Source of the DNA: Sphingopyxis sp.
GTDB taxonomy: Bacteria; Pseudomonadota; Alphaproteobacteria; Sphingomonadales; Sphingomonadaceae
Assembly (NCBI RefSeq): GCF_050916055.1
Contig: NZ_CP051527.1
Span: 2,737,066-2,801,065 of the forward strand
Direction of reading: 5' to 3'
DNA length: 64,000 nucleotides
Shown in pieces: positions 9,166 to 28,216 of this stretch. A model generated the notes under the pieces. The model had not been told where the DNA came from. It did no database searches and saw only the letters and a program-made list of their open reading frames with translations. Both the position numbers and the translations under genes were made by a program. The stretch's first letter is position 1, and the number at the start of each line of letters is the position of its first letter.

Positions 9166-9295
9166 GGCTGATTTCGTGGCGGAGGGCAACGCAGTCGGGC
9201 GTTTGGGTGAATCTCTGCAGATATGCATACGTCAGGGTTACCCTGTCGAGGAATTGGTAGCAGAGGACGCCGCTAATCGATTTGCTGCGCGCGCG

Positions 9296-9592
9296 ATGGC
9301 AAGCGGTTGGAGTCATGCCCTTATCGTCGAGGTTATCGACGCCGGTATTGAGGCAGAGCTTGCCTCCATGCCTTTCCCTGATCCCCTTTACGATCTACCT
9401 GCAGACGAACTTGTTGATCAGGCTGTCGGCTTGGCTGGTCAGGTTCGGAGCTATTGTCATGCTTTGTTCAGTCGTCGGCCCGGAGCGGTCACTGATCTTG
9501 AGAGCGGTGATCGGGAAGTTGATGCACGGCTGGCGCGCGCTCGCCGTGACGCTGCGGAGATCCTGGCCCAACAGCAGGCGTTGTCTCGATGA
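9296..9592 (+). CDS. Hypothetical protein (start uncertain)
   Basis: Longest open frame in the low-GC stretch between the two IS5 copies; no recognisable motif. Confidence 0.3.
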   Translation: MASGWSHALIVEVIDAGIEAELASMPFPDPLYDLPADELVDQAVGLAGQVRSYCHALFSRRPGAVTDLESGDREVDARLARARRDAAEILAQQQALSR

Positions 9593-9838
9593 TAACGCCG
9601 GACTGTCTACCTAGCGTAAGAACGAGCCGGCTGCTGATGATAGAGGAAGCATTCGTGTACAGCCTCCATGCGCCGTAGTTGCCCGGGGCCAGCATTGGCG
9701 GCGCGGGGGCGACCACTATCCTTGATTGACTTCCAAAAAGCGGTCAGCCCTCTGTGCAGCTTCCGTTACAGCTCGTGCTGCTTCATTCATGTAAGATCAA
9801 TGTCCCAAGATTGATTATGATAGGATCAGGAGGTTGCC

Positions 9839-10249
9839 GTGCTAGGTATTTTTATTGCCGCCACAGCTATGGCAGCCTCGCTTTGGTCGCTGCCTGTATC
9901 TGCTGAAGATGCCCCTCGTTGCTCATCCTCTGCTATTCCCGCAGCAGACAAGGCTCGCCTCAGTGCGCAATATAATCGGCGGCTTTTGACTGAAGGGAAA
10001 ACCAGCGCCGATGCTTGGGCTGCTGAGCAGGGTAGGCGCTATCGTGAAATGATGGAAAAGCAAGGGATATGCCCCCCACGCAAACCCGTGAATAATTCGG
10101 CCAATTCAACGCCTCCGCCTAGGGAGCAACCGACAAGCAACAACCGTAAAAAAGGCAAGTGTACCCGTACCGTCTGGCAAACTCGTCATATCGCGAGCCC
10201 GGGTGGAGGTCCCATGAATATAATTAGGGTGCCGGTCTGCGTAAACTAG
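9839..10249 (+). CDS. Hypothetical secreted protein
   Basis: AGGAGG RBS before a GTG start; signal peptide ending VSA-ED; 4 Cys. The stop TAG is part of the CTAG target of IS copy 2. Confidence 0.6.
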   Translation: MLGIFIAATAMAASLWSLPVSAEDAPRCSSSAIPAADKARLSAQYNRRLLTEGKTSADAWAAEQGRRYREMMEKQGICPPRKPVNNSANSTPPPREQPTSNNRKKGKCTRTVWQTRHIASPGGGPMNIIRVPVCVN

Positions 10250-10838
10250 GCTGTGTTGACAAAAGGGATTCCCAAATCGGCCTTGTTCTGATTCAAGACT
10301 GCTTTTTGAGGAGCAGTCATGGGTCGCGGGGATTTGTCGGATGCGGAGTGGGACCTGATCGGGCCGCTGCTGCCGCCAGAGCGCGGTCGTTGGGCGCGGC
10401 CGGCGGGCGATAACCGGCTTTTCCTCAATGGAATGCTTCACGTGCTGCGGGTCGGCTGTCCCTGGCGCGACATGCATGAGCGATACGGCAAGTGGAACTC
10501 CGTCTATGTGCGCTTCCGTCGCTGGGCCGAACAAGGTGTCTGGGATGCCCTGCTGCAAACACTGGTCGACCTGGGTCTGACCGACGACTGGCAACACATG
10601 ATCGACAGCACCAGCGTTCGCGGCCACGTCTCGGCAGCGGGCGGAAAAGGGGGGCTTGTGCGAACGCTCTTGGTCGATCACGCGGCGGCTTTACGAGCAA
10701 GATCCACGCCCGTTGCGACAATCAGGGACTGCCTGTCGGCTTCATCCTGACCGGCGGCGAGGCTTCCGACTACACCGCTGCCGAACCGCTGATGGCGATC
10801 CCCGTCGCCACACCCACGGCGCTGCTCGCGGACAAGGG
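10249..10838 (+). mobile_element. Second IS5/IS427-type copy, diverged and 3'-truncated
   Basis: Left TIR GGCTGTGTTGACAAAAG after CTA. OrfA 10319-10750 is near-identical in protein to copy 1. OrfB breaks after LLADKG. Confidence 0.9.
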
Positions 10839-11492: not shown

Positions 11493-12840
11493 TTGGACCG
11501 AGAACCGCTAGACCCTGCACCTATTCGACCGTTCACGCCGCCGCCCGAGGTTCAGGCGGCGATCGACGCCTATGCGGCCAGGCTGAATGCCTGCGATCCT
11601 ATGCAGTCCGGCTTCAAGATGACGCCGGTCGCGATGGTCGTCAGCGATCCGACGCTTCCCGATTGCCCGCCCATTTACGTCAACGCCGCCTTCGAGAAGC
11701 TGACCGGCTTCCCGGCCGTCGAGGTAGCGGGTCGCAACCGCCGTTTCATGCAGGGGCCGTTGACCGATCCCGACGACGTGGCTCGACTGAGGGATGCGAT
11801 CGAGCAGCGTGAGCCGGTCGAGCTGGATCTTCTCAATCATCGGCGTGACGGGACGCCTTTTTGGAACCGGCTGATGGTCGGGCCGGTGTTCTGTGAGAAC
11901 GGTAGCTTGCGTTATTTCGTCGCCTCGCAGATCGACGTGACGGTAGAGCGGCACCGCGTTCTGCAACTGGAACAGGACCGCGAGGCACTGGCGGCCGAGG
12001 TGGCGCAGCGGGATGCAGACCTGGCCTCGCACAATGCCCGGTTGCGCATGGCGTTGAAGTCCGGCGCACTTGCCACCTGGACGCTTGATCTGCCCGAGTG
12101 TTTGTTGACCGCGTCGTCGGGCTGCAAGCGGGTGTTCGGGCGACCGTTGGGCGAGCCGTTCACCTATCAGGAGCTGCTGGCGGCGATCCATCCCGAGGAC
12201 CTGCCCGCAATGTAGGCGGCGGTCGGACGTACGATCGAGCAACGAACCCTATCACATAGAATATCGCATCCTGACGCCCTCTGGTGTTTCAGTCCAGGGG
12301 GAGCTTCAGCACCGTGCAGACGGCACGCCGCTCGCCATGACGGGCTTTTCGACCGACATTTCGCAGCGTAAATTTGCCGAAGAACACCGCGCCGTTCTCG
12401 CGCGTGAGCTTACGCACCGGGTCAAGAACACGCTAGCGACCGTCAATGCCGTCGTCAGCCAGACCATCAGGCAGGCGACTTCACTGGATGACGCCGCGAT
12501 CACGGTGTCCGCTCGCATCCCCAATCTGGGAGCCGCGCAGGAGCTGTTGATCCAGGATGAGGTCGAAGGCGCGGCGATCGGTGATATCGTGGATAGAGCC
12601 CTGCTCCCGTTCAAGGACCGGGATGCCGATCGCTTCACGCCTCCGGTCCCCATGTAAGGCTCTCCCCGGAGATCACCTTGGCGCTGGCAATGGCGCTGCA
12701 CGAATTGGCGACCAACGCCATCAAATACGGGGCGCTGTCGGTGCCGGAAGGCAGGGTCGCGATCGAATGGTCGATCAAGCAGCGGCAGGGCAAGCGTCAC
12801 CTGTTCTTCTGTTGGGGCGAGCATGACGGTCCGACAGTGA
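11493..12840 (+). pseudogene. LOV-PAS-HWE histidine kinase pseudogene
   Basis: LOV domain (PPIYVNAAF...GRNRRFMQG...FWN), premature TAG at 12213-12215, frameshifts, H-box ELTHRVKNTLA, LHELATNAIKYGALS. C-terminus cut off. Confidence 0.9.
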
Positions 12841-13135: not shown

Positions 13136-13304
13136 TACACGGATGTTGTAGAAAAGCCCTTTCAACCGGGCGCGGGCATTTTCTTTGAGCGGGAGCTGGC
13201 GCGATCAGGTCAATCCGGACATACGGACTGGGCTCGCAGTGGGCTTTGCTGCAGATCGACAGAGGCTTGTTGCAAGAACACCGAGGACGATCTCGCCTGG
13301 ACGA

Positions 13305-13925
13305 TTACACCGCAGCCGGCCATCGATCGAGTGCCATTTTGGCGATCGAGAGCAGTTCGTTAATCGTAGCGCCGTCGCGCGCTTGAACGGACATGCCTTC
13401 CATGACCGTATTGATGAATTTGCCTAGGACGGCCGGATCGGCATCGGCCGCAAGCTCGCCCTGCGCGGCGCCGCGATGCAGACGCTCGATCAGGAGGGCC
13501 TCCGCCGCGATACGCTTGTCGCGCAGCAGGCATTCGATGGCGGCGGACGCCGGCGACACGGCTGTCGCTGCCGAATACATGAAGCAGCCGGCCGGCGTTC
13601 CAGGCTCCGAGAACGATGACGCCGCTCGCTCCAGCAGGTCTTTGACGGCCTCGAAGGTGGACAACGCCGGGTCGTTGATGGGGGCATAGAGGTGGACGCT
13701 GAACGTCGCGGCATAGCGCTCGATCACCGCCGCGAACAGCCCCGCCTTGTTGCCAAACGCCGCATAGAGACTGGCGGCGGCGACGCCAGTCTCTGCCACC
13801 AGATCGGCCATCGAAGTCGCCTCGTAGCCGCGCTGCCAGAACAGCCGTACCGCCTTGTCGAGCGCTGCGTTAGTGTCGAACACGCGAGGGCGACCTGCGC
13901 CGCGACGTGCTTTCGTCTCTGTCAT
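13305..13925 (-). CDS. TetR/AcrR-family transcriptional regulator
   Basis: GRPRVFD...LFWQRGYEATS...SLYAAFGNKAGLF HTH; GCFM C-terminal motif. Confidence 0.95.
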   Translation of the reverse strand: MTETKARRGAGRPRVFDTNAALDKAVRLFWQRGYEATSMADLVAETGVAAASLYAAFGNKAGLFAAVIERYAATFSVHLYAPINDPALSTFEAVKDLLERAASSFSEPGTPAGCFMYSAATAVSPASAAIECLLRDKRIAAEALLIERLHRGAAQGELAADADPAVLGKFINTVMEGMSVQARDGATINELLSIAKMALDRWPAAV

Positions 13926-13937
13926 TTCTGGCGCCTG

Positions 13938-14008
13938 ATATGGAATGATCGATAAATAATAGCTTGAACCTCGTCGCTGACATCGATACAGAACGATCGC
14001 TCAATAAT
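13938..14008. promoter_or_regulatory. Two similar 23-bp boxes; probable TetR operators in the divergent promoter
   Basis: ATATGGAATGATCGATAAATAAT (13938-13960) vs ATACAGAACGATCGCTCAATAAT (13986-14008), 18/23 identical, each centred on GATC. Confidence 0.55.
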
Positions 14009-14021
14009 CAAGGAATGTCCC

Positions 14022-15011
14022 ATGAGCCGCATCGTTCGAATCCACGAATATGGCGACGCCAGTGTCCTCAAGATTGAAGATTTGGCAGTGCCCGCGCCCG
14101 CGGCCGACGAGGTGCAGATCGCGGTCAAGGCGATAGGCATAAACCGCGCCGAGGTGATGTTCCGCAACCATGCCTACCTTCAGGAAGCCGAGTTCCCGAG
14201 CCGCCTTGGCTATGAGGCTGCCGGCACCGTCCTTAAGGTCGGCGCGGACTTGACCGGGTTTGCGGAAGGCGAAGCCGTCAGCGTCATCCCCCCGCTCGAT
14301 ATCGCGCGCTGGGGCACCTATGGCGAGGTCGCCAACGTGCCCGCCCGCCTCGTCGTCAAGCATCCGGTGGCGCTGTCGTTCGAGGAAGCGGCGGCCGTGT
14401 GGATGCAGTATGTCACCGCTTGGGGCGCGCTGGTGGAGCAGGCGAAGCTCGGCCAGGGCGATTTCGTCATCGTCACCGCTGCTTCCAGCAGCGTCGGCCT
14501 TGCTGCCTTCCAGATTGCGCGGATGGTCGGCGCGACGGTAATCGCGACGACGCGTACCGGCGCCAAGCGCCAGGCCCTGCTTGATGCCGGTGCACATCAT
14601 GTCGTCGCGACCGAGGAAGAGGATCTGGTGGCGAGGGTGATGGAGATAACCGATGGTGCAGGTGCGCGCGTGGTGCTCGACCCGGTCGGAGGCCCGTCGT
14701 TCGAGCCGCTGACCGCGAGCATGGCGCGCGGCGGCATCCTGCTCGAATATGGCGCGCTCAGCGGCGAGCCGACGCCGTTCCCGTTGTTCTCCGTGCTGGG
14801 CAAGAGCCTCACGCTCAAGGGTTATCTCTACAGCGAGATCGTCTCGGACGACGCCGCCCTTGATCGCGCCAAGGCGTTCATCGTGGCGGGTCTGGAATCG
14901 GGCGCGCTCAAGCCGCGGATCGCGCGCACTTTCCCGCTCGACGCCATCCAGGACGCGCACCGCTTCCTCGAATCGAACGACCAGATCGGCAAGGTCGTCG
15001 TTACGGTCTGA
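14022..15011 (+). CDS. MDR-family NADPH:quinone reductase-like oxidoreductase
   Basis: AIGINRAE, RLGYEAAG, TAASSSVG, ESNDQIGKVVV. Confidence 0.92.
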   Translation: MSRIVRIHEYGDASVLKIEDLAVPAPAADEVQIAVKAIGINRAEVMFRNHAYLQEAEFPSRLGYEAAGTVLKVGADLTGFAEGEAVSVIPPLDIARWGTYGEVANVPARLVVKHPVALSFEEAAAVWMQYVTAWGALVEQAKLGQGDFVIVTAASSSVGLAAFQIARMVGATVIATTRTGAKRQALLDAGAHHVVATEEEDLVARVMEITDGAGARVVLDPVGGPSFEPLTASMARGGILLEYGALSGEPTPFPLFSVLGKSLTLKGYLYSEIVSDDAALDRAKAFIVAGLESGALKPRIARTFPLDAIQDAHRFLESNDQIGKVVVTV

Positions 15012-15297
15012 CCGGCAAACCTGGGGGAGCAAGCGATGGCTCCCCCTCCCAGACACAGGATCGGACCCAAAGCGCCCAGGCCGTCGTTGCTTGTGGCGCA
15101 GGCTTAAGAGCATGACCGCTCCTCCTCCGCGTGCCAGACCTGTCTCAGGGTAACATGGCGGCTATGCCTGCCCGATCGTGGGGCGAATTTGGAGATTGGC
15201 CGGGGAACTTCGCCTGATTACAGAAGCGCCAGTCTCTGGACAGGATTGAAACTCCCCCCCTGTATAGTATGCTGAAGCGATTTCTCGGGAAAGCGCG

Positions 15298-15588
15298 ATG
15301 CCACATTCATCAGAGGACAAGAAGCGAGCCATTACACGCTTGCGGCGTATTAAGGGCCAGGCGGACGCTTTGGAACGCGCGATCGAAGCCGGGGCCGATT
15401 GCACTCCCCTGCTGCAGCAGATTGTCGCCATGCGAGGCGCGACAAATGGACTGATGGCGGAAGTGATGGAGAGTCACCTTAGGGAAACATTCGGCGCCGG
15501 TGCAGATCCGGCCGTGAAAAGCGAGGGCAGCGATCACGAGGACGACGTGGAGGGCGTAATGAAGATTCTGCGTACATATCTTAAGTAA
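15298..15588 (+). CDS. frmR: Formaldehyde-responsive repressor (CsoR/RcnR family)
   Basis: MPH N-terminus (Pro2), Cys35 in ADCTPLLQQI, ESHLRE; upstream of frmA. Confidence 0.85.
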   Translation: MPHSSEDKKRAITRLRRIKGQADALERAIEAGADCTPLLQQIVAMRGATNGLMAEVMESHLRETFGAGADPAVKSEGSDHEDDVEGVMKILRTYLK

Positions 15589-16992
<1,404 letters not shown>

Positions 16993-17269
16993 CCCGCCGA
17001 TCCGAAGTGGCGCGAGGCGCTCGGATCGACAACTCGGCCGTCATCATGGGCCGACCCCGGCCATGATGACGCGCGCTCTGGCAAATGGGCAACGCGTCGC
17101 GATGCGGTAAAAGCGCCGTGCGGTCGTTACATGCCGATAGCGGCACGGACGAGGGCCGCCTGGCCCAGGTGCTTACCGGCGGAGTGTGTGTGGCCTCGTC
17201 GCGCGACCCCATGGGGAAAATGGTTTTGTCGCAACCTTTGTCTAATGCTGGAAAATATTTCAAAGGTGC

Positions 17270-17294
17270 CGAACATCAGGCCAGCCTGGCCGTT
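17270..17294 (+). promoter_or_regulatory. EcfG (general stress sigma)-like promoter upstream of the UvrA-like gene
   Basis: CGAAC-N16-CGTT. Confidence 0.5.
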
Positions 17295-17338
17295 GGATGT
17301 ATTGAGTAGAAAATGCATTCATCTTTTACCCGACCGTA

Positions 17339-20041
17339 ATGAACACGGGCCGCACGGGCGGATATGGCAGGAAGACTGAATTGAAGGACAAGGATATACA
17401 CGCGACGACGCCGGCCACCGATCATGGGCATGCGGGGCCGCCCGCCTGCGTGCAGGTTCGCGGCGCGCGCCAGAACAATCTCAAAAATGTCGACGTCGAT
17501 GTGCCGCGCGACGCCTTCGTGGTGTTCACCGGCATATCGGGCTCGGGCAAGTCATCGCTCGCGTTCGGCACCCTTTATGCCGAAGCCCAGCGGCGTTATC
17601 TGGAATCGGTTGCGCCTTATGCCCGTCGCCTGATCGACCAGGCCGGCGTGCCGGAGGTCGACGCGATCGACGGATTGCCGCCTGCGGTCGCGTTGCAGCA
17701 ACAGCGCGGCTCGGCTAACGCGCGATCCTCGGTCGGCAGCGTGACGACGCTCTCCAGTCTGGTGCGGATGCTCTATTCCCGCGTCGGCGAATATCCGCGC
17801 CATCAACCCATGCTCTATGCGGAGGATTTCTCCCCCAACACGGTCGCGGGGGCCTGCGCGACCTGCCACGGCATCGGCCGCGTCTATGACGCGACCGAAG
17901 AGACCATGGTTCCTGACGCCAGCCTCACCATTCGCGACCGGGCGATCGCCGCCTGGCCAACGGCGTGGCATGGGCAGAACCTGCGCGATATCCTCGTTTC
18001 GCTCGGCTATGACGTCGATACGCCGTGGCGCGAGCTGCCGAAAAAGGATCGCGACTGGATCCTTTTCACCGAAGAGGCGCCGACGGTGCCGGTCTATGCG
18101 GGCCTGACGCCCGAACAGACCCGGGCGGCGCTCAAGCGCCGCCTGGAGCCGAGCTACCAGGGCACCTTCACCGGCGCGCGCCGCTATGTGCTGGAAACCT
18201 TCGCCAACACGAAAAGCGCGCTGATGAAGAAGCGCGTCTCGCAATATATCATCGGCCGCGATTGCCCGACCTGCGACGGCAAGCGCCTGAAGCGCGAAGC
18301 CCTGTCCGTGAAGTTCGCGGGCCTCGACATCGCCGAGTTCGGCGACCTGACGGTGCTCAAGCTGAAGGACTTGCTCACGCCCGTCGCGCGTGGCGAATAT
18401 GGATCGACCTTCGCCGCCTCAAAGGGCCATGTTCTGGAAAAAGCGGCCCGCGATGCAGCGGTCGAACAACGGGTTGCCGCGGGCGGCTCTGCGCACAAGA
18501 GCGCGCCCGACGTGCGCCGCACGCCCAACCTCTCCGACGAAAAGCGGATCGCCGCCCAACGCCTTGCCTGCGAATTGATCGAGCGTCTCGAGCCGCTGAT
18601 CGATCTTGGCCTTGGCTACATTTCGCTCGACCGCAGCACGCCGACGCTCTCCTCCGGAGAGCTGCAGCGCTTGCGGCTTGCCACGCAATTGTCGTCACAG
18701 CTTTTCGGCGTGGTCTATGTGCTCGACGAGCCTTCGGCAGGGTTGCACCCGGCAGATGGCGAAGCCTTGCTCACCATCCTCGAGCGTCTCAAGGCGGCGG
18801 GCAACTCTCTGTTCGTCGTCGAACATGATCTCGACGTGATCCGCCGCGCGGAATGGCTCGTCGATGTCGGGCCAGGAGCCGGGGAAAAGGGCGGTGAAGT
18901 CCTCTACAGCGGGCCGATAGAGGGGCTCGCCGACGTCGAGACTTCGATCACCCGCCGCTACCTGTTCGCAGAGCCGCTCCGCAGTGAGCGCACACCGCGC
19001 GATCCCAAGGCATGGCTACGCCTTGAAGGGATCAGGCGGAACAATCTCCATGGTCTCGACGTCGAGTTTCCCATTGGTTGCTTCACTGCTGTCACCGGCG
19101 TTTCGGGATCGGGCAAATCCAGTCTCGTCAGTCAGGCGCTGCCCGAACTCGTCACGGAACACCTCGGCGGCTCCCCGGTCGCCGAGGAGCAGGATATCGA
19201 TCCGCTGCTCGATGTTGCTCAGAACGATACTGAAGGACGCATTGTCGCGGGCATGGACCATTTTCGCAGGCTGGTGCGGGTCGATCAGAAACCGATCGGC
19301 CGCACGCCGCGCTCGAACCTATCCACCTACAGCGGCATGTTCGACCATGTGCGAAGGATCTTCGCTGAGACGCCGCTCGCCCGCCGGCGACACTATAGCC
19401 CGGGCAGGTTCTCGTTCAACGTCGCGCAAGGCCGCTGCCCTGTTTGCGAAGGCGAGGGATACGTCATGGTGGAGCTGCTCTTCCTGCCGAGCGTTTTTGC
19501 GCCGTGCTCGACCTGTCATGGCTCTCGCTACAACCCGCAAACGCTCGAAGTCGAATGGAACGGGCGCAATATCGCCCAGGTGCTCGAACTGACGGTCGAC
19601 GATGCATGCGATTTCTTCGCTGGCGAGGCATCTGTGATGCGCTCCCTCGACGTGTTGCGGGAGATCGGGCTTGGCTATCTGAGGCTCGGTCAGCCGGCGA
19701 CCGAGCTGTCTGGCGGGGAGGCGCAGCGCATCAAGCTGGCGACTGAACTGCAACGCGCTCAACGTGGCAACACGATCTACATCCTCGACGAGCCAACTTC
19801 GGGGCTTCATCCCTCCGATAGCGACCGGCTGATGCAACACCTGCAGGGCCTAGTAGACGCCGGCAATACCGTCGTAGTCGTCGAACATGACATGCGCGCC
19901 GTCACGCAGGCGGACTGGATCATCGACCTGGGACCGGGGGCCGGGGAAGATGGGGGCCGTATCGTTGCCAGCGGCGTCCCTGGCGTGGTTGCGGAAGCGG
20001 AAGGCAGTCTCACCGCCCGCTATCTCAAGGCGGCGCTGTAG
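17339..20041 (+). CDS. UvrA-like protein (UvrA2/class II type)
   Basis: Two ABC modules ([17 protein letters not shown]; [20 protein letters not shown]) and zinc fingers. Appears to lack the UvrB-binding insert. Start may be TTG at 17381. Confidence 0.88.
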
Positions 20042-20298
20042 GTCGTAAATCTGGCCGAACGCACGTTCGATCAGGTGCATCTCAACCACACGCTGGAATG
20101 GGTCGAATCTGGAAGCGGGAGCCGGCGATGTGTCACCGCGGTTGACGCGGCTCAGGGTTTGAGTGCCCGTCAGATGCGCCCTGTTCGGGTGATACGCGGC
20201 GTGGCGGACGGCCAATCGCTGGCCATCCGCCACGCTCGCTTAGTGAGGACCTTCTCCAGGGAGAGGGCCCTCACATGGTTTCGTCGAGACGGCCCGCC

Positions 20299-20868
20299 TT
20301 AATTCCCTGCTGCGAGCGATGCGCCCGCACCTTCTGCGATTTCCTCGACGAGTTTGGCACAGAAGGCGGGCAAATCATTGGGATCGCGGCTGGTAACAAG
20401 GCCGTTGTCGACCACGACTTCCTCATTGGTCCATGTACCGCCGGCGTTCTCGATATCGACCTTCAGCGTCGGGTAGGACGTCAAGTTGCGACCCTCAAGC
20501 ACGCCCGCCTCGATCAATGTCCAAGGTGCATGGCATATGGCTGCAACGGGTTTCTTCTGATCGAAGAAAGCCCGGATGAAACCAATTGCCTCGGCGCTGC
20601 CGCGCAGCTTGTCGGCACCGACAGTCCCTCCGGGCACAACAAGTCCGTCGAAATCGTCGGCTTTGACCTCGGAAAACGTCTTGTCGATCGTATAGCTGCC
20701 GCCCTCGTCGAGATCGCTATTGACTGTGCGAGCCTTGCCCGGTTCGAAACTGACTACGGTCACTTTGCCACCCGCGTCCTCGACAGCTTGCCTGGGCTTC
20801 GAGAATTCTGGTTCTTCGGTCCCGCGGGGTGCGATCAGAATGGCGACTGATTTGCCTTCTAGGGTCAT
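20299..20868 (-). CDS. DJ-1/PfpI-family (type 1 glutamine amidotransferase-like) protein
   Basis: GTEEPE, VVPGGTVGAD, AICHAP nucleophile elbow, TSRDPNDLPAF. Confidence 0.93.
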   Translation of the reverse strand: MTLEGKSVAILIAPRGTEEPEFSKPRQAVEDAGGKVTVVSFEPGKARTVNSDLDEGGSYTIDKTFSEVKADDFDGLVVPGGTVGADKLRGSAEAIGFIRAFFDQKKPVAAICHAPWTLIEAGVLEGRNLTSYPTLKVDIENAGGTWTNEEVVVDNGLVTSRDPNDLPAFCAKLVEEIAEGAGASLAAGN

Positions 20869-20899
20869 AATTAATTTCCTATTCCGTCGAAGGCTAAGG

Positions 20900-22039
20900 T
20901 CAGGTGCCCGGCTTGAGCACAACCTTCGTCCAACCAGCATCGCGTTCGTCGAAATGCTTGTAGGCGTCTGGTGCCTGATCAAGCGGCAGTCGGTGCGAGA
21001 TGATTTGGGCAGGATTGGCCCGGTCTTGCTCGATAAGCTTCATCAACCGCCGGTTGTAGTGCTTTACATTGCACTGGCCGGTGCCGATCTTCTGGCCCTT
21101 GAACCAGAAGTTGCCGAAGTCGAACGCCATCTTGCCTTCCTTCTGGAGATCGTCGGGCGCGTTCGGGTCTTCCGGAATGAACACGCCGACGACGCCGATT
21201 CCGCCGGTGGCCTTCGTGCTCTTGACGAGGCAGTTCATCGTGTAATTGCTCCGCTCCTTGCCGTGGCGATCGCAACACTGGTATCCGACCGCCTCGACCC
21301 CCCGGTCGGTCCCGAGGCCGCCGGTCGCGTCAAGAATCTGCTGGGCGGGATCGCCCTTCCGCATGTCGATCGGAATGGCGCCCATCGCCTCGGCCAGTTT
21401 CAGGCGGTCATCGTGAGAATCGACCACGAAGATCTGTGAGGCACCGCGAATTTCGGCTGAGTGCGCGGCCATTAAACCGACCGGACCGGCGCCGTAGATC
21501 GCGATGCTTTCGCCAGGCATGAAGCCTGACAGTTCGACGCCATGCCAACCCGTCGGGAAGATGTCGGAGAGCATGACATAGTCATCCTCCTTCTCCTCGG
21601 CGTCCTCAGGCAGCTTCAGACAATTGAAGTCCGCATAAGGAACACGCATCAACTCGGCCTGGCCACCCTGCCACGGACCCATCTCGGCAAAGCCATACGC
21701 TGCGCCGGCGGTTCCAGGGTTGGTCGTGAGGCAGAAACCCGTCAAACCCCGTTCGCAATTTTCGCAGAAACCGCAACCGACGTTGAACGGCAAGCACACG
21801 CGATCGCCCTTCTTGATACGATCTACGGCAGAGCCGACTTCGACGACCTCGCCAAGGTTTTCGTGACCGAAGACCCTGCCCTTCTCGAAGCTGGTACGGC
21901 CCTCATACATGTGAAGGTCCGACCCGCAGATATTGGTCGTGGTCAGCCGGATGATAACATCGGTCTGCTTTTCGACCTTGGGATCATCGATAGTATCGAC
22001 AGAAACATCTTTGGGCCCGTTGTACACGACAGCTTTCAC
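20900..22039 (-). CDS. Glutathione-independent formaldehyde dehydrogenase-like zinc MDR
   Basis: NICGSDLHMY, GHEN, CGFCENC...C, GGQAELMRVPYADFN, LSDIFPTG. Confidence 0.88.
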   Translation of the reverse strand: MKAVVYNGPKDVSVDTIDDPKVEKQTDVIIRLTTTNICGSDLHMYEGRTSFEKGRVFGHENLGEVVEVGSAVDRIKKGDRVCLPFNVGCGFCENCERGLTGFCLTTNPGTAGAAYGFAEMGPWQGGQAELMRVPYADFNCLKLPEDAEEKEDDYVMLSDIFPTGWHGVELSGFMPGESIAIYGAGPVGLMAAHSAEIRGASQIFVVDSHDDRLKLAEAMGAIPIDMRKGDPAQQILDATGGLGTDRGVEAVGYQCCDRHGKERSNYTMNCLVKSTKATGGIGVVGVFIPEDPNAPDDLQKEGKMAFDFGNFWFKGQKIGTGQCNVKHYNRRLMKLIEQDRANPAQIISHRLPLDQAPDAYKHFDERDAGWTKVVLKPGT

Positions 22040-22157
22040 GGATCTCTTCCTTTCGCAACTCTTCTGAACGCGTCATCAAATCTAGAGCTTGGTGTTGATC
22101 CGGTCCATCGCAACGACGGAGGACATCGCACCCATTCCAAGTGATCTCAGTTTCCTG

Positions 22158-22182
22158 AACCTTCTGCTACCTGAGAGGTTCC
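22158..22182 (-). promoter_or_regulatory. EcfG-like promoter for the FDH-pfpI operon
   Basis: Minus strand GGAAC-N16-GGTT, about 120 bp upstream of the start. Confidence 0.5.
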
Positions 22183-22497
22183 TTCCCGGAGGGCCATTCT
22201 CGGATCGATTCACGGCTGTTTTCTGAAGACTGGGCCAGAACGGGCGAATAACGCGCCAAGTTGATGTGCCCAAGAATTTCCCGCGAACAAATCGTGCCGC
22301 TACATCGCGCCACGTCAACGGCGCTTGATCAGTAAATTCAGAGGTGTGATAAGCGCAAAAGACAAGGCCATCCACTATCGCGGATGGCCTGTCGTATTCA
22401 TTTACTCATTTCTCGGTTCGGCCGGGGCATCCATTCGGGATGGAGACACGAGCCTTACACTGCAGCCAAACGGCAGCTTAGGGTGCCGACCGCTCCG

Positions 22498-22791
22498 CTA
22501 TTTCGCGGCCAGCAGGGTGAACTTGTGAATCTGCGGCGGTTCGGAAAACAGTTCGTCTGCCTTGTCCATCAGTGCGGCGGCAACCTTGCCGTCAAGATGG
22601 GCCTGGCGATCATCCTCTGTGTCGAACGTATCGAAGATCGCGTACGCACCGGGACCTTCCTCGATCGCATACCAGGTCAGAGTGCCCGGCTCAGCTTGAA
22701 CGAGCGGCAATGCCGAGGTGAGGAAATCGGCGACATCGCGCTCTTTTCCGGGCTTGGCCTTCAGTGGTACATACAGGGCAAGTTTGGGCAT
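22498..22791 (-). CDS. Antibiotic biosynthesis monooxygenase (ABM) / putative quinol monooxygenase
   Basis: LKAKPGKE...EPGT...IFDTF...AHL pattern; GAGGAG RBS. Confidence 0.85.
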   Translation of the reverse strand: MPKLALYVPLKAKPGKERDVADFLTSALPLVQAEPGTLTWYAIEEGPGAYAIFDTFDTEDDRQAHLDGKVAAALMDKADELFSEPPQIHKFTLLAAK

Positions 22792-22835
22792 AAATGACTC
22801 CTCAAGTGAAACGGACAGATATTATTCGGCAAAGT

Positions 22836-22861
22836 AACGGACGAGCAGACCGGTACGTTCC
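22836..22861 (-). promoter_or_regulatory. EcfG-like promoter for the ABM gene
   Basis: Minus strand GGAAC-N17-CGTT (consensus-perfect). Confidence 0.65.
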
Positions 22862-22902
22862 CCATGAGGCGGAGCACACGCGGCCCCGCCTCCTCGTCGA
22901 AA

Positions 22903-23643
22903 TCAGAACTCCTGTGCGGTCGGCCGGATGACGATCGCGTTGACATCGACGTCATCAGGTTGTTCGACAGCGAACGCGATAGCACGCGCCACCGATGCCG
23001 CCGGGATGGCCTGCTTGTAGAAGTCCAGCACCGTCTCGGCAGCCGTGCCGGATGTCGTGAACTTCAGATTGCTTTCGACAGCTCCAGGCTCGATTGACGT
23101 GACCCGGACCTTTTCCCCCACTTCGTGGCGCAAGCCCTCGCTGATCGCGCTGACGGCAAACTTTGTGCCGGAGTAGACCGTGCCGCCCGGTGCGAAGACC
23201 TTGATGCCCGCAACCGAGCTCAGGTTGATGATGTGACCGCTGCCCTGCTCGAGAAAACCGGGAAGGGCCGCCGCGATGCCGTAGAGCGTACCCTTCAGAT
23301 TGACGTCGATCATCTGGTCCCACTCGTCGGTATTGACCTCGGCCATCGGACGGATCGGCATGAGCCCGGCGTTGTTGATCAGCACGTCGAGGCGGCCGAA
23401 GTCGGCGACGATCGCGGCGACGACAGACTGGACCGCCGACTTGTCGGTTACGTCGAGCGCGTAACTACGTGCCGTGCCGCCGCTTGCGGCGATGTCCGCG
23501 ACGACCTCGTCGAGCCTGTCCTTGCGCCGGGCGGCGATGGCCACCTTGGCGCCGCGTTCAGCGAGAAGCCGCGCGGTTTCTGCGCCGATACCGGTGCTGC
23601 CGCCGGTGATGAGAACAACCTTGCCTTCGATACCCTTGGTCAT
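22903..23643 (-). CDS. SDR-family oxidoreductase
   Basis: TGGSTGIG, NNAG, YSGTK. Confidence 0.95.
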   Translation of the reverse strand: MTKGIEGKVVLITGGSTGIGAETARLLAERGAKVAIAARRKDRLDEVVADIAASGGTARSYALDVTDKSAVQSVVAAIVADFGRLDVLINNAGLMPIRPMAEVNTDEWDQMIDVNLKGTLYGIAAALPGFLEQGSGHIINLSSVAGIKVFAPGGTVYSGTKFAVSAISEGLRHEVGEKVRVTSIEPGAVESNLKFTTSGTAAETVLDFYKQAIPAASVARAIAFAVEQPDDVDVNAIVIRPTAQEF

Positions 23644-23719
23644 GACTGTATTCCTTCAAGTCAGTTGTTGATTTTTCGCCGGATCGCGGCCCCGCGCGAG
23701 CCCGCCCGGCCTGATGGGG

Positions 23720-24871
23720 TCACTGCGAGCGCAACAGGACGGGACCGGCGCCCACCTTGATGCGGAGCAGTTCGTAGGGCTTGCGGCGCAAGTCCCGCCC
23801 GCCGTGGAAGCCTGGCTGGCGGTGAAGCTGGTTGGCGGTGAAGTAGAGGTAGCCGTCGGTGCCGATCGACAGCGTGTCGGGCCAGCTGATGCGCGGGTCG
23901 CTGACCACCGTCGTCCAGCTGCCCTGGTCGAGCACGCGGATCGCGTTGTTCTCGTAATCGCCGGCGAACACGCGGCCGTTGTCGTCCTCGGCAATCCCGT
24001 CCGAGGCGCCTTTGCGCCCCAGGTTGCGGACCGCGCGGCCCAACCCCTCCTCGGACACCGCGGCATCGCGCAGCAGCGCCGTGGGCACCGCGTGCAGCGT
24101 GCGACCCGACAGCGGTCCATAGTAGAGCAGGCTGCCGTCGGCGCTGAGCGCAATCGCGTCGCTGGCGATCGCGACCGGCGTCGCGGGGCCGTCGGCCGGG
24201 CGGTTCATGAGCACCGCGCCGTCGACGACCGGGGTGAAGCCGCGCTCGGGGTTGGTCGTCGCATGGTTCGACAGGCGCCGGATCGCACGCCCGCTGGCGA
24301 TATCGACGACGATGATGCCGCCGACACCGGCGTTGCTGCTGTCGGTGATGTAGGCGACGCCCTCGGCGCCCTGACGCAGATCGAAGCGCACGTCGTTGAG
24401 GTAGGTCGTGGGCAGCACCACGCTGGGCGGCAGAACGATCGTCTTCACCACCCGGTTGGTTGAAAGATCGATCGCCACCAGCTTTGCACCGCCGGCCTGG
24501 GGCTGGGAGAAATTGGGCGCCGCCGTGTCGAGCACCCAGAGGCGGTTGGCGCCATCGGCCACCACGCTCTGCACCGAGATGAAATGCCCCGCCGGGTCGG
24601 CCGGATCGGGCCGGTTGGTCGCGGCGTCGGGATAAGGCACCGCCTTGCCGTCGACCAACTCGGCCACCGTGAACGGCGCGTTGTCGCCCCATTGCGGGAA
24701 GTTGACAAAAATGCGCCCGTTGGGGGCGACGGTCACGCCAGTCGGCATCGCGCCATCGAAGGTCGCGACCTGTTCGATCTGGGGCGCGGATGCACTCTCG
24801 CGGGTCGTCGAGCAGGCGGCGAGCGTTAAAGCCGCGCCCGCGGCAAGAAGCAGTTTGACGGAGATTTTCAT
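23720..24871 (-). CDS. Major royal jelly protein / yellow-family (L-dopachrome tautomerase-related) beta-propeller lipoprotein
   Basis: Lipobox LAAC; PTGVTV, SVQSV, LWVLDT, YLNDVRFD, WPDT, NQLHR. Real start at 24871. Confidence 0.88.
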   Translation of the reverse strand: MKISVKLLLAAGAALTLAACSTTRESASAPQIEQVATFDGAMPTGVTVAPNGRIFVNFPQWGDNAPFTVAELVDGKAVPYPDAATNRPDPADPAGHFISVQSVVADGANRLWVLDTAAPNFSQPQAGGAKLVAIDLSTNRVVKTIVLPPSVVLPTTYLNDVRFDLRQGAEGVAYITDSSNAGVGGIIVVDIASGRAIRRLSNHATTNPERGFTPVVDGAVLMNRPADGPATPVAIASDAIALSADGSLLYYGPLSGRTLHAVPTALLRDAAVSEEGLGRAVRNLGRKGASDGIAEDDNGRVFAGDYENNAIRVLDQGSWTTVVSDPRISWPDTLSIGTDGYLYFTANQLHRQPGFHGGRDLRRKPYELLRIKVGAGPVLLRSQ

Positions 24872-25974
24872 GGGATCATTTCCTTGAGAATGCGGCCCGC
24901 TTCCTGGGGCTCGGACCGGAGATATTGCGGGGGCGCCTTGACCGATGCGCCAAGCGCGGCGGCGGCGTGCCAGGGCCAGCGCGGATCCCACAGCGCAGCG
25001 CGGGCTATCGCTATGGCGTCGGCATGCCGGTCTTCGAGGATGCGCTCCGCCTGATGCGGATCGGTGATCATTCCGACCGCCACGACAGGCATGGCGACCG
25101 CGTCCTTGACCGTCCGCGCCAGCGGCACCTGATAGCCGGGGCCGACAGGGATCTGCTGGCGCGGGTCGAGGCCGCCGCCGGAGACGTGGATTGCCGAACA
25201 ACCGCGCCGCTCCAGCTGCTGTGCAAACAATGCGGTTTCCTCCGCCGTCCAGCCGCCTTCAACCCAGTCGGTCCCGGAAACGCGGACGGTCACCGGGCGG
25301 TCGGCCGGAAATGCTTCGCGCACGGCATCGAACACTTCGAGCGGGAACCGCATCCGGTTGTCGAGGCTGCCGCCGTAGTCGTCGCCGCGCCGGTTGGAGA
25401 TCGGCGAAAGAAACTCGTGGAGCAGATAGCCATGCGCGGCGTGGATCTGGATGGCTTCGATGCCGAGCCTGCCGGCGCGCCGGGCGGCATCCGCGAACGC
25501 CTCCCGGATGCGGGCAAGCCCTGACTCGTCCAGTTCGACAGGGGGATGGTCGTCCGGAGCGAATGGGATGGCGCTGGGTGCCACGGTCTGCCAGCCATTC
25601 TCCGCATCGGGGGCGATCTGCGTTCCGCCGTGCCACGGCTTGGCGCAGCTCGCCTTGCGGCCGGCATGGGCCAGCTGGATGATAAGCGGCATGTCCGACC
25701 AACGGCGCACACTTTCGAGCACGCTTCGCATCGCCGCTTCGGTACGGTCATCGTACAGGCCGACGTCACCGTAGGTGATGCGCCCTTCCGGGCTGACCGC
25801 GGTCGCCTCTATCGTCAGCGCGCCCGCGCCCGAGAGCGCCAACTCTCCGAGATGCATCTGGTGCCAGTCGGTCATCGCGCCGTCGACTGCCGAATACTGG
25901 CACATCGGCGCGATAACGATGCGGTTGGCGAGCCGCAGCCCGCCAACCTCAATCGTTTCGAACAATTTCGCCAT
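24868..25974 (-). CDS. NADH:flavin oxidoreductase (Old Yellow Enzyme family)
   Basis: NRIVIAPMCQYSA, QLAHAGRKAS, HAAHGYLLHEFLSP, YGGSLDNRMRF, PGYQVPLA. Confidence 0.95.
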   Translation of the reverse strand: MAKLFETIEVGGLRLANRIVIAPMCQYSAVDGAMTDWHQMHLGELALSGAGALTIEATAVSPEGRITYGDVGLYDDRTEAAMRSVLESVRRWSDMPLIIQLAHAGRKASCAKPWHGGTQIAPDAENGWQTVAPSAIPFAPDDHPPVELDESGLARIREAFADAARRAGRLGIEAIQIHAAHGYLLHEFLSPISNRRGDDYGGSLDNRMRFPLEVFDAVREAFPADRPVTVRVSGTDWVEGGWTAEETALFAQQLERRGCSAIHVSGGGLDPRQQIPVGPGYQVPLARTVKDAVAMPVVAVGMITDPHQAERILEDRHADAIAIARAALWDPRWPWHAAAALGASVKAPPQYLRSEPQEAGRILKEMIP

Positions 25975-26429
25975 CACCATTCGCCCGTGTTGGGCATGGA
26001 GGCCCAGGGTTCGACCGGAGCCTTGTGTTCGCCCTGCTGCAGCAGTTCGATCGAGATCCCGTCCGGAGAGCGGACGAACGCCATGTGCCCGTCGCGCGGG
26101 GGGCGATTGATCGTCACGCCGCCCGCCTGCAGCCGCGCGCAGATTTCGTAGATGTCGTCGACCTGATAGGCGAGATGGCCGAAGTATCGGCCCCCCGTGT
26201 ATGTCTCGGCAGGGCTGCCGTCCTCGGGCGGCCAGTTGTACGTCAGCTCGACCTCGGCATCGCCCTGCTCGCCGTCGCCGCGGAAATCCTCGTCGGCGGC
26301 AAGGTAGATCAGCGTGTAACGCCCGGCCTGGTTCTCCATGCGCCGGGTCTCCTTGAGACCCAGCAGCGTGAAGAAACGGATCGACGACTCGGGATCGGCG
26401 ACGCGCAGCATGGTGTGGAGATAGCGCAT
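25974..26429 (-). CDS. gloA: Lactoylglutathione lyase (glyoxalase I)
   Basis: YLHTMLRV, ELTYNW, GHLAY, AFVRSPDGISIELL. Confidence 0.88.
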   Translation of the reverse strand: MRYLHTMLRVADPESSIRFFTLLGLKETRRMENQAGRYTLIYLAADEDFRGDGEQGDAEVELTYNWPPEDGSPAETYTGGRYFGHLAYQVDDIYEICARLQAGGVTINRPPRDGHMAFVRSPDGISIELLQQGEHKAPVEPWASMPNTGEW

Positions 26430-26431
26430 GA

Positions 26432-27241
26432 TCAGGCGACCTTTTCCTTGAGGGCTTCCATCACGAGTTCCGCGGTGCGCGCCGCGCTGGCGGGGTTCTG
26501 ACCGGTCACCAGATTGCCGTCGCGTAGGGCGAAGGGGGCAAAATCGGGGCCGCCCTCGTGCTTGCCCCCAAGTTCCTTGAGGCGCGTTTCGAGCAGGAAC
26601 GGCACCGCCTGATCGAGGCCGACCGCGCGCTCCTCGCTGTCGGTGAAGCCCGCGACACGGCGGCCAGCCACGAGGGGCGTGCCATCGGCCTTCTTCGCCG
26701 AGACCAGCCCTGCCGGTCCATGACAGACGGCGGCGACGATCTTGCCTTCGCGGTCGAAGCGTTCGACCAGGCGGGCCAGTTCGTCGCTGCCCGGGTAATC
26801 GAACATGGTGCCGTGGCCACCGGGCAGGAACAGCGCGTCGTAGCCGCCGGGATCGATGCTGGTGAACACCGGCGTGCCGACAACCTCGGCCTTCAGGGCC
26901 TCGTCCTTCAGATAGCGCTCGACCGAAGCGTCGTTCTCGCCGTCGGCATTGACGCTGCGCTGGTCGACGGGGATGGCGCCGCCCTTGATCGAGGCAAGCG
27001 TCACCTCGGCGCCCGCATCGCGGAAGGCATAATACGGGGTGGTAAGTTCCTCGAGCCAGACACCCGTCGGTTCGGTGCCAGGGGTCATGCGGTCGGCGGA
27101 GGTGGCCACCATCAGAATGCGGGTCATCGTCAATTGTCCTGTTCCATTGATGTCGGGGACACGAGCAAACGCACCCGGCGCAGCCGCACCCGCCACAAAG
27201 ACAGCTGTGAGAGCTTTCAGCAGTTGGCGGCGATTTTTCAT
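26432..27241 (-). CDS. DJ-1/PfpI (Hsp31/glyoxalase III-like) protein; possible Tat leader; alternative start at 27127
   Basis: TGVWLEEL, LPGGHG, AVCHGP, VTGQNPAS. The in-frame extension begins MKNRRQLLK. Confidence 0.88.
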   Translation of the reverse strand: MKNRRQLLKALTAVFVAGAAAPGAFARVPDINGTGQLTMTRILMVATSADRMTPGTEPTGVWLEELTTPYYAFRDAGAEVTLASIKGGAIPVDQRSVNADGENDASVERYLKDEALKAEVVGTPVFTSIDPGGYDALFLPGGHGTMFDYPGSDELARLVERFDREGKIVAAVCHGPAGLVSAKKADGTPLVAGRRVAGFTDSEERAVGLDQAVPFLLETRLKELGGKHEGGPDFAPFALRDGNLVTGQNPASAARTAELVMEALKEKVA

Positions 27242-27312
27242 TCGATCGTGCCTTTCGGCGGCTTAGATACGCCGGGAACGGCATCATGAAATCCAGCGGG
27301 AATGGCGGACGG

Positions 27313-27330
27313 CCATAAATCCGCTTATGG
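27313..27330. promoter_or_regulatory. Dyad CCATAA-N6-TTATGG; probable LysR binding site
   Basis: Lies between the divergent LysR and DJ-1 operon starts. Confidence 0.5.
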
Positions 27331-27337
27331 AACCGCA

Positions 27338-28216
27338 ATGTCCCTCCTGCAGTTGCGCACCTTCGTCGAAGTCTACCGCCGTCGTTCACTGAGCGAGGCG
27401 GCCCGGGCAATCGGCATTACCCAACCGGCTGCGTCGCAGCACATCGCATCGCTCGAGGCGCAATTGGGCCGTCCCTTGTTTGATCGCCATTCGCGGGGTG
27501 TTCGACCAACAGCGATTGCCGACGATCTGGCGGCTTCGATCGGAAGCAGCCTCGACACGGCGGAATCGGCACTGGCCAGCGCGCGGGCCCGATCGTCGCG
27601 CATCTCGGGCACGGTCCACATCGCCGCACCGTCGGACCTGCTGGGAGAGATGATCACGCCCCGACTGGCTCCGCTGCTGGAAGCAGGGCTGGACCTGCGC
27701 CTGCATATCGGCGGGCGCGAGGCGCTTTATGCCATGCTCCTCGAAGACAGGGTGCATCTGGCTGTCACCGCCTCGAAACCCGAAGATCCGCGGCTGGCCT
27801 TCCATGCGCTGGGCGAAGAGCACCTGCGCGCCGTAGCCTCTCCCGCCGTGGCCATGCGGATTGCCGAATTGCCGCTGGTCGAAGGGCTTAATCAAACAGC
27901 CCACCTCGCCTACGATCTTGACCGGCCGCTGCTGCGAACCTGGCTCCATGCAAACCAGATCGAGCTGACTAGCCAGCCCGCCTTGACCGCGCCCGATCTG
28001 AGGGTGCTACGGTCGGGATTGTACGCGGACCTCGGCTGGACGGTACTGCCCGGCTATCTCACCCGCAGCGAACGCGCTGCCTGCACGCTGATCGAGATAC
28101 CCGCGCCGATCATGGTGCCGCTCAACGCTTTCTACCTTGTGTGGGCACGCTCATCGCTGCGACACCCGCGCGTGGCCATGGCTCGGGACGCCCTGATTGC
28201 TGCACTCCAAATATAA
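27338..28216 (+). CDS. LysR-family transcriptional regulator
   Basis: QLRTFVEVYRRRSLSEAA...TQPAASQHIASLEAQLGRPLFDR. Confidence 0.95.
   Translation: MSLLQLRTFVEVYRRRSLSEAARAIGITQPAASQHIASLEAQLGRPLFDRHSRGVRPTAIADDLAASIGSSLDTAESALASARARSSRISGTVHIAAPSDLLGEMITPRLAPLLEAGLDLRLHIGGREALYAMLLEDRVHLAVTASKPEDPRLAFHALGEEHLRAVASPAVAMRIAELPLVEGLNQTAHLAYDLDRPLLRTWLHANQIELTSQPALTAPDLRVLRSGLYADLGWTVLPGYLTRSERAACTLIEIPAPIMVPLNAFYLVWARSSLRHPRVAMARDALIAALQI

Follow-up and report, generated by a model that had tools for sequence, protein, structure and literature searches.

Our analysis concerns uvrA2, a gene for a class II UvrA protein, in a 64-kb stretch of Sphingopyxis sp. DNA (contig NZ_CP051527.1; G+C content ~63%) that we refer to as the window. 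The gene lies on the forward strand, directly downstream of frmA, and converges on a two-gene unit for a PfpI/DJ-1 family protein and a formaldehyde dehydrogenase (FDH)-like enzyme. As an open reading frame (ORF) of the window it extends from an ATG at 17339 to position 20041, a single long frame with a GC3 of 0.77. However, this ATG is out of frame in other copies of the gene because of a 1-nt indel; the conserved start is a TTG at 17381, with a ribosome-binding site, AGGAAG, at 17369–17374. The product of the 17381–20041 frame is 886 amino acids long, matching the length of database relatives.

The translation is that of a UvrA-family tandem ABC ATPase. Both sets of Walker A, Walker B and signature motifs are intact (including GISGSGKSS and ILDEPT), the CxxC pairs of the Zn modules are present, and the UvrA DNA-binding (insertion) domain is retained together with the Zn modules and the two ABC modules. 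The closest solved structure is Deinococcus radiodurans UvrA2 (2vf7; 1234 bits), whereas canonical UvrA structures score ~670–703 bits (best class I, 703) and Ecm16 (7sh1) scores 458. A residue-level alignment gives ~75% identity to D. radiodurans UvrA2, with which the protein is colinear over residues 22–337 and 383–886. Relative to canonical UvrAs, the UvrB-binding domain of ~150 residues is missing: residues 137 to 148 of the window protein correspond to chain residues 139 to 292 in Mycobacterium tuberculosis UvrA and 137 to 285 in Geobacillus stearothermophilus UvrA, and the NCBIfam alignment picks up again at profile position 267. The class I equivalog NF001503 is matched at 884 bits, under its cut-off of 1147. 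The older profile TIGR00630 is matched at 861 bits, which passes its cut-off, and hence the RefSeq name “excinuclease ABC subunit UvrA”. Judged by its sequence, the protein is a class II UvrA and not a UvrA1, since 2vf7 scores highest, NF001503 is missed and the UvrB-binding domain is absent; the identity originally proposed for it is thus upheld, and clustering with canonical UvrA1 was not seen. The protein is an added member of a known family, and its association at the level of the system varies on kinds already known, frm operons and nucleotide excision repair. Compared with D. radiodurans UvrA2, the protein carries a charged and alanine-rich insertion of ~45 residues (338–382; 18392–18526). 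Located after the N-terminal ABC insertion region and before signature domain I, this insertion is shared by the enterobacterial and Acinetobacter plasmid UvrA2 proteins.

Pairwise comparison of the window uvrA2 with 26 copies from the island described below gave dN/dS values of 0.08–0.17. Purifying selection acts on the gene. It is also transcribed: contigs assembled from RNA libraries cover uvrA2, more shallowly than frmA. These contigs derive from related variants, ignore strand and may include DNA, and they do not show transcript ends; their depth is a poor measure of expression. One contig joins the 3ʹ end of frmA to the 5ʹ end of uvrA2, in a variant without the segment that holds the candidate uvrA2 promoter. 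From its sequence, uvrA2 appears as an intact gene and functional cargo of the region that carries it.

The genes on either side of uvrA2 are detoxification genes. frmA (15883–16992, +), for an S-(hydroxymethyl)glutathione dehydrogenase, reaches the equivalog TIGR02818 at 727 bits against a cut-off of 544. Upstream of it lies frmR (15298–15588, +), a formaldehyde-sensor-type repressor gene whose top family match is NF008464 (FrmR; 117 bits, cut-off 133) and whose product carries the sensing residues Pro2 and Cys35 as well as His60. A sigma-70-like promoter at 15246–15273, upstream of frmR, overlaps a C7-tract site. Between frmR and frmA are two perfect ATACT-N7-AGTAT repeats (15766–15782 and 15790–15806, +) with zero mismatches and G/C-rich spacers; base counting predicts ~0.1 such sites. 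From what is known of the CsoR/RcnR/FrmR family, we take these repeats to be FrmR-type operators. Neither frmR nor the operators featured in the original prediction. Two stable hairpins without a U-tract follow frmA (16995–17075, +; RNA fold −58.7 kcal/mol, z = −2.5). They were not called as an intrinsic terminator, and possibly represent an attenuator or terminator. No known RNA family matched the frmA–uvrA2 spacer or any other part of the window.

Downstream, and on the opposite strand, the second gene of the convergent unit encodes the PfpI/DJ-1 protein, of the deglycase or glyoxalase III type (20299–20868, −; TIGR01382, 156 bits against a cut-off of 139; Pfam DJ-1_PfpI). The first encodes a PFDH-like Zn-dependent dehydrogenase (20900–22039, −), which matches TIGR02819 at 357 bits, under the cut-off of 637. 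Its RefSeq relatives are annotated as glutathione-independent FDH, but it does not reach the FdhA equivalog score and is 37% identical to the fdhA product of the sister module described below. It resembles the Pseudomonas putida-type FDH and is best called FDH-like only. Hence, of the two formaldehyde dehydrogenases between which uvrA2 had been placed, the first stands and the second is less secure; the position directly after frmA and the convergent arrangement are as described before. Also as described, there is no uvrB or uvrC nearby: tblastn found no UvrB homologue in the window, and none of its ORFs is UvrC-like. Profile searches found detoxification enzymes as the neighbours of uvrA2, and no biosynthetic genes or drug-efflux context beside it.

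The whole region, again a feature not recognized originally, is a horizontally mobile island. Megablast of the window against the loci of relatives delimits a modular accessory island of ~15 kb (13217–28345) with genes for aldehyde and electrophile detoxification; its edges recur at 13217/13301 and 28343–28347, with modular indels inside. The island is found at ~94% nucleotide identity in more than 40 alphaproteobacterial genomes and on plasmids, 66 plasmid records match the island block, and in Sphingopyxis terrae pStJH two copies of IS6100 bracket it. Among single-representative genomes, UvrA2 copies at 95–97% protein identity occur across many genera, including Alteraurantiacibacter, Devosia, Sphingopyxis, Roseomonas, Brevundimonas, Qipengyuania, Novosphingobium, Sphingomonas, Sphingobium, Acetobacter and Paracoccus. 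FrmA is encoded directly upstream of uvrA2 in 25 of the 30 copies that could be assessed; downstream, 28 of 32 copies have PfpI and 24 of 32 have the FDH-like gene. Because all of these are copies of one island, we count them as one observation of linkage.

Conserved linkage extends well beyond the window. A sister module, found on alphaproteobacterial plasmids and contigs, encodes a UvrA2 that is 92% identical (protein) to that of the window, within a series of genes on one strand: frmR, lysR, fdhA, frmA, VOC, fghA, a FAD oxidoreductase (FADOR) gene, DUF3422, uvrB, uvrA2, and genes for a Dyp peroxidase, an encapsulin and a PRC-barrel protein. In IncHI2A plasmids of Enterobacter hormaechei (L140) the order is frmR, frmA, VOC, fghA, a group II intron, a FADOR remnant and uvrA2; FrmA is 90% and UvrA2 65% identical to the window proteins. 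There, uvrA2 converges on an FDH-like gene 74% identical to that of the window and so lies between two dehydrogenase genes, mirroring the arrangement in the window. The IncHI2A module is present to an extent of 80% or more on at least 120 plasmids. The same UvrA2 protein (WP_012561117) is encoded by an IncN plasmid, plasmid 9 of Klebsiella pneumoniae (L137), where a truncated FrmR-family gene and a FADOR remnant lie upstream of uvrA2 and a SprT-like gene and mucAB are nearby. On pMRAD01 of Methylobacterium radiotolerans, the gene for UvrA2 (67% identical) has an aldo-keto reductase gene on one side and a DJ-1 gene on the other.

In two metagenome-assembled genomes (MAGs), from Afipia and Rhodospirillaceae (L041 and L047), the connection appears to be regulatory. 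Their UvrA2 proteins are 81–83% identical to that of the window, and a frmR-type gene, again encoding Pro2 and Cys35, is divergent from uvrA2; no dehydrogenase gene is close to the pair. Upstream of uvrA2 in each are two ATACT-N7-AGTAT sites, e.g. ATACTCCTACCCAGTAT, of the same type as those that precede frmA in the window. Such sites are absent from all other uvrA2 upstream regions, and the background is 0.06 sites per kb. Relatives of the FrmR proteins from these two MAGs head frmR-frmA-fghA operons.

Does UvrA2 act without UvrB, as had been supposed for class II proteins? The sister module makes this doubtful. Its uvrB ends 22 bp before uvrA2 and encodes a full-length protein (874 bits; equivalog cut-off 743) that belongs to a clade of UvrB paralogues, here termed UvrB', with 63–100% internal identity (Alpha-, Beta- and Gammaproteobacteria, Bacteroidota and Vibrio; L082:13395–15371 and L142–L166) and about 50–55% identity to canonical UvrB. 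All 20 proteobacterial loci that encode the paralogue at ≥69% identity have frm-module genes within 8 kb, and a betaproteobacterial MAG (L160) has uvrB' embedded in the order frmR, frmA, VOC, uvrB, DUF3422, fghA, followed by uvrA2. Nearly every proteobacterial copy of the paralogue gene is embedded in a formaldehyde-detoxification module, in some cases one without uvrA2. Taken together, the pairing in sister modules argues for some cooperation between UvrA2 and a UvrB. In Rhizobium sp. L045 only the last uvrB codons are left upstream of uvrA2 (9900–10000 of that locus), and in Shinella L145 43 uvrA2 codons are left after uvrB' (10000–10116); given these remnants, the pair has been broken repeatedly. 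The final 40 bp before the window uvrA2 align too weakly with the 3ʹ end of uvrB to count as a remnant, and that possibility was rejected; such a remnant is clear in Rhizobium L045 only.

The EcfG-like promoter proposed for uvrA2 is present as a motif, cGAAC-N16-CGTT (17270–17294, +), that matches GGAAC-N16/17-CGTT at 8 of 9 positions, 87 nt before the TTG. Its occurrence is not above chance: the window has 2 matches to GAAC-N16/17-CGTT where 3.8 are expected, although both occupy promoter positions within the island. The motif lies in a 214-bp segment between frmA and uvrA2 (17097–17310) that is prone to indels, with deletions and junctions concentrated there. This segment is deleted in L007, L023, L024, L025 and L042 and in RNA runs X3 and X4, and further junctions of island copies fall at 17287–17302. 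The ends of the deletion share the short repeat GTCG. Across island copies the motif is intact in ~22, mutated in ~6 and deleted or replaced in ~11; about a third of copies have it altered or missing, and the mutated class comprises six copies with point changes in the boxes. Purifying selection on uvrA2 persists in copies without the motif, and no EcfG-like motif lies upstream of any non-island orthologue examined. Comparing conservation of the motif with that of its flanks is uninformative here, since the stretch is uniformly conserved.

Two better EcfG-type promoters lie elsewhere in the island, and alignments of 20–25 distinct copies indicate that conservation is specific to their motifs. 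Upstream of the FDH-like/PfpI operon is GGAAC-N16-GGTT (22158–22182, −), with hexamers more conserved than their flanks in 20 distinct copies. The other, a consensus GGAAC-N17-CGTT (22835–22860, −), lies 45 nt before the start of a gene for a small antibiotic-biosynthesis-monooxygenase-like (ABM) protein; its motif blocks are invariant or nearly so, and its spacer is variable. An EcfG-type promoter for the window uvrA2 is therefore plausible, in that it fits the other promoters of the island, but the distribution across copies indicates that it is not essential to the gene. FrmR control of the window uvrA2 is possible only via read-through from frmA.

We propose that UvrA2 is the DNA-level arm of an aldehyde-defence cassette, a reading to which we give a probability of roughly 0.55. 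It is well supported by comparative genomics, through the recurrent linkage and the putative FrmR-type operators of the two MAGs. Under this proposal, UvrA2 would be a dimeric, ATP-driven sensor of DNA lesions, lacking the UvrB-docking domain, and would be cargo of a mobile cassette that senses and detoxifies formaldehyde and related reactive carbonyls and electrophiles. Its partners would be FrmR, FrmA, the PFDH-like dehydrogenase, PfpI/DJ-1, an Old-yellow-enzyme (OYE) reductase and a glyoxalase-like protein. The enzymes would lower the level of aldehyde while UvrA2 raised the capacity to find lesions, the likely targets being DNA-peptide and DNA-protein crosslinks, interstrand crosslinks and guanine adducts, which it would channel to excision repair. 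Formaldehyde yields DNA-protein and interstrand crosslinks, and in E. coli nucleotide excision repair (NER) removes crosslinked proteins of less than ~12–14 kDa, including small DNA-protein crosslinks of the formaldehyde type (review PMC6945406). The older form of the module would carry its own UvrB paralogue gene directly upstream of uvrA2, and the variant in the window would have lost it. In that variant, UvrA2 would presumably work with the UvrB and UvrC of the host, or as mixed dimers with UvrA1, and would probably be expressed from an EcfG-type general-stress promoter, possibly with read-through from FrmR-controlled frmA.

Several observations weigh against this proposal. No aldehyde genes are near 28 chromosomal orthologues with 67–71% identity (Pseudomonas, Achromobacter, Variovorax and others), nor near the orthologues of Hyphomicrobium, Paracoccus, Gemmatimonas, Bradyrhizobium, Haloferula and a Pantoea plasmid; the chromosomal orthologues without such neighbours span 67–88% identity. 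The pairing is not obligatory: island copies L090, L091 and L100 lack uvrA2, and uvrA2 copies L015, L019 and L052 lack frmA. Nor are the linkages in the three module lineages fully independent, given that these have gene order in common and probably go back to a single ancestral cassette. In the window itself, no FrmR operator (ATACT-N7-AGTAT with up to 2 mismatches) lies at 16993–17380, upstream of uvrA2, and frmA is followed by two hairpins. Without the known UvrB-docking domain, a hand-off from UvrA2 to UvrB is hard to account for mechanistically, and a 2026 preprint still describes the function of the D. radiodurans protein as elusive (bioRxiv 10.64898/2026.06.04.729788). The linkage of frm genes to uvrA2 extends beyond the window but is confined to mobile modules. 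The most fitting interpretation is that it has long persisted despite divergence and rearrangement, with one regulatory connection in addition, and not that it arose many times independently. We also clustered ORFs within 7 kb of the 67–86% orthologues (35 loci) and found synteny at the level of the genus only, with no neighbour common across genera.

One alternative is that UvrA2 is a general-stress booster of DNA repair in an EcfG-type regulon, serving against many lesion types during desiccation or oxidative, UV or osmotic stress, with the aldehyde genes as neighbours that share the regulon. The EcfG-like motif upstream of uvrA2 and the two better promoters of the island, with their motif-specific conservation, are as this explanation would have it. 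PfpI, ABM and short-chain dehydrogenase/reductase (SDR) proteins are typical general-stress proteins of alphaproteobacterial regulons, and other orthologues also have stress genes close by: Haloferula has DUF892 and AhpC, Bradyrhizobium has Hva1_TUDOR, and the sister module has the Dyp-encapsulin-PRC group. However, the uvrA2 motif has one mismatch and, in about a third of island copies, is altered or lost, with no relaxation of selection on the gene, and it is absent upstream of all non-island alphaproteobacterial orthologues examined. The frm linkage is also found in Gammaproteobacteria, which are not known to possess EcfG, and uvrA2 in L041 and L047 is preceded by FrmR-type operators, not by EcfG boxes. 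We consider this explanation unlikely.

It is less probable still that UvrA2 is a hitchhiker, or aids the mobile element itself (e.g. by protecting plasmid or integrative and conjugative element (ICE) DNA), and lies near frm genes only by descent from a common ancestral cassette. The gene order of the three module lineages does fit a single ancestor plus deletions, with FADOR and FrmR-family remnants upstream of the enterobacterial uvrA2. Moreover, 590 plasmids carry UvrA2-like genes, many without adjoining frm genes (IncN with mucAB and SprT-like; Acinetobacter; Pantoea), and the linkage is absent on chromosomes. Against this, the linkage has outlasted divergence to 65% amino-acid identity, rearrangements, insertions of insertion sequences (IS) and an intron, and loss of intervening genes; uvrB' lies within the frm operon in L160; and the divergent frmR-uvrA2 pairs with operators in the two MAGs suggest a regulatory, not merely physical, connection. 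A third alternative, a DrrC- or Ecm16-like resistance protein that removes non-covalent DNA-binding toxins such as intercalators by ATP-driven action without UvrB or UvrC, is very improbable: class II UvrAs and their relatives, Ecm16 among them, do confer echinomycin resistance without NER (PMC9328131) and the window has no uvrB or uvrC, but Ecm16 scores far lower than D. radiodurans UvrA2 (458 and 1234 bits), no biosynthetic cluster or drug-efflux context is beside uvrA2, sister modules pair uvrA2 with uvrB, and aldehyde lesions, being covalent, could not be removed in this way.

The preferred reading, an aldehyde-defence role for UvrA2, can be taken a step further. We tentatively suggest, as a possibility in which we place well below even confidence, that class II UvrA and the dedicated UvrB paralogue clade form a mobile branch of excision repair, co-regulated with formaldehyde detoxification and specialized for aldehyde-derived DNA-peptide and DNA-protein crosslinks and interstrand crosslinks. 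If so, such a branch would supply the physiological function that has long been missing for class II UvrA, and plasmid-borne “formaldehyde resistance” modules, including those of clinical IncHI2 and IncN plasmids, would combine detoxification with repair of lesions. Class II UvrAs are widespread, one has been solved structurally and none has an accepted function; the link to formaldehyde, apparently regulatory in two genomes, provides a concrete and cheaply testable hypothesis. Formaldehyde tolerance carried by plasmids is already a practical concern with respect to methenamine prophylaxis and aldehyde disinfectants, and some of the enterobacterial plasmids with the module, of the IncHI2 and IncN types, come from clinical isolates. 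Should UvrA2 and UvrB' have a part in it, such tolerance would depend on repair of DNA in addition to detoxification. A ready-made stress cassette also moves among drinking-water and environmental Alphaproteobacteria. Among the sources of island-bearing plasmids H15, H17 and H22 are metal-working fluids, tap water from a bathroom and a working solution of gentamicin, an anecdotal association with biocide exposure.

The remainder of the island is made up as follows. At its left end, a TetR-family regulator gene (13305–13925, −; Pfam TetR_N and TetR_C_13) is kept in island copies and is followed by a gene for a quinone-oxidoreductase (QOR)-type Zn-ADH family protein (14022–15011, +; TIGR02824 at 216 bits, under the cut-off; Pfam ADH_N and ADH_zinc_N). 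To the right of the FDH-like gene, an intrinsic terminator with an 11-bp stem and a T-tract (22365–22390, −) follows the ABM gene (22498–22791, −; named from the RefSeq annotation of the L081 orthologue, and kept in island copies). Then come genes for an SDR oxidoreductase (22903–23643, −; Pfam adh_short), a secreted MRJP/L-dopachrome-tautomerase-related protein (23720–24871, −; RefSeq annotation of the orthologue, with no NCBIfam match), an OYE NADH:flavin oxidoreductase (24868–25980, −; Pfam Oxidored_FMN, 201 bits), a VOC/glyoxalase-I-like protein (25974–26432, −; TIGR00068 at 104 bits, under the cut-off of 120) and a second DJ-1/HchA-like type 1 glutamine amidotransferase protein (26432–27127, −; weak matches to NF003168 and TIGR01382). 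A LysR-family regulator gene, identified by profile search, marks the right end (27302–28216, +). Variants of the island in Sphingomonas and Bosea (L090, L091 and L100) keep the TetR, QOR, FrmR, FrmA and ABM-SDR genes and lack uvrA2, PfpI and the FDH-like gene, from which it follows that the cassette is modular.

The surroundings of the island in the window are rich in mobile elements, with an integrase, IS5 segments and an IstB fragment, and a copper/metal resistance cluster lies downstream. The integrase is a P4-type tyrosine integrase (6029–7306; Arm-DNA-binding and Phage_integrase domains) that comes after chromosomal-looking genes for a P450, a HerA-like helicase and an S41 peptidase. Insertion of the island at a tRNA gene was considered and rejected, as there is no tRNA gene anywhere in the window. 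Two IS5-family segments (8310–8609 and 10245–10544, within 8310–10838) make up a direct repeat at 88%, with 1.9 kb between them; they represent either two copies or one IS5 split by another element, and in related plasmids an IS110 lies within IS5. Adjoining the left end of the island, a PAS/LOV-like ORF (11493–12215) has NRRFMQG where LOV domains have the photoactive cysteine; it is possibly a sensor-kinase fragment. Directly to the right of the island is an ORF of 677 codons (28400–30433, −) with no Pfam match at E ≤ 1e-5, and beyond it an IS21 IstB-like fragment (30319–30639). The metal-resistance cluster (33000–57000) includes genes for a TonB receptor, a multicopper oxidase with CopB, a P-type ATPase and an RND pump; this stretch is ~82% identical to a Sphingopyxis indica plasmid, pointing to a sphingomonad host or plasmid.

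How does this system compare with those already known? Among proteins, the nearest is D. radiodurans UvrA2 (PDB 2VF7/2VF8), with which the window protein is colinear at ~75% identity and shares the absence of the UvrB-binding domain. It differs in having ~45 residues (338–382) where D. radiodurans UvrA2 has a gap of ~12 residues. The D. radiodurans protein has no assigned physiological role, whereas the window gene is borne by plasmids and an island beside genes for aldehyde detoxification. DrrC and Ecm16 of antibiotic producers are likewise UvrA-family ATPases without the UvrB-binding domain that provide accessory protection of DNA; unlike UvrA2 they are encoded within biosynthetic clusters, their ligands are non-covalent and they lack a UvrB partner, and at 458 bits they are far more distant.

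The sensing and detoxifying genes resemble E. coli frmRAB, adhC of pVU3695 and the IncN and IncFIB plasmids of methenamine users in having a mobile FrmR-type sensor (Pro2, Cys35) and FrmA (PMC13029678); sister modules hold FghA (FrmB) as well. Those systems have been described as purely enzymatic, and the accompanying uvrA2 and uvrB' are not discussed. Indeed, the papers that we found on plasmid formaldehyde resistance (pVU3695 adhC; IncN and IncFIB) do not mention uvrA. In the literature covered, from which subscription journals are largely absent, we found no interpretation of the frm-uvrA2 pairing, in agreement with the original prediction; the genes themselves, however, have been listed together twice at the level of annotation. 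Variable region 4 of ICEPni1 from Pseudomonas nitroreducens HBP-1 carries FrmA, FrmB, FdhA, a Dyp peroxidase and “excinuclease components UvrA and UvrB” (PMC7466150), and Acinetobacter GR13 plasmids have an FDH gene beside a UvrA-like gene, a pairing left uninterpreted (PMC9455709). The ICEPni1 gene list, on which our knowledge of this element is based, matches the sister module; in contrast to the alphaproteobacterial island described here, ICEPni1 is a gammaproteobacterial ICE, and its authors saw a mosaic of unrelated functional categories and proposed no functional link (PMC7466150).

Finally, the proposed lesion class and the downstream steps are those of canonical UvrABC-mediated NER of DNA-protein crosslinks. 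The difference lies in the partner: canonical UvrA docks UvrB through the domain that is missing here, whereas the module form would use a protein from a separate clade of UvrB paralogues.

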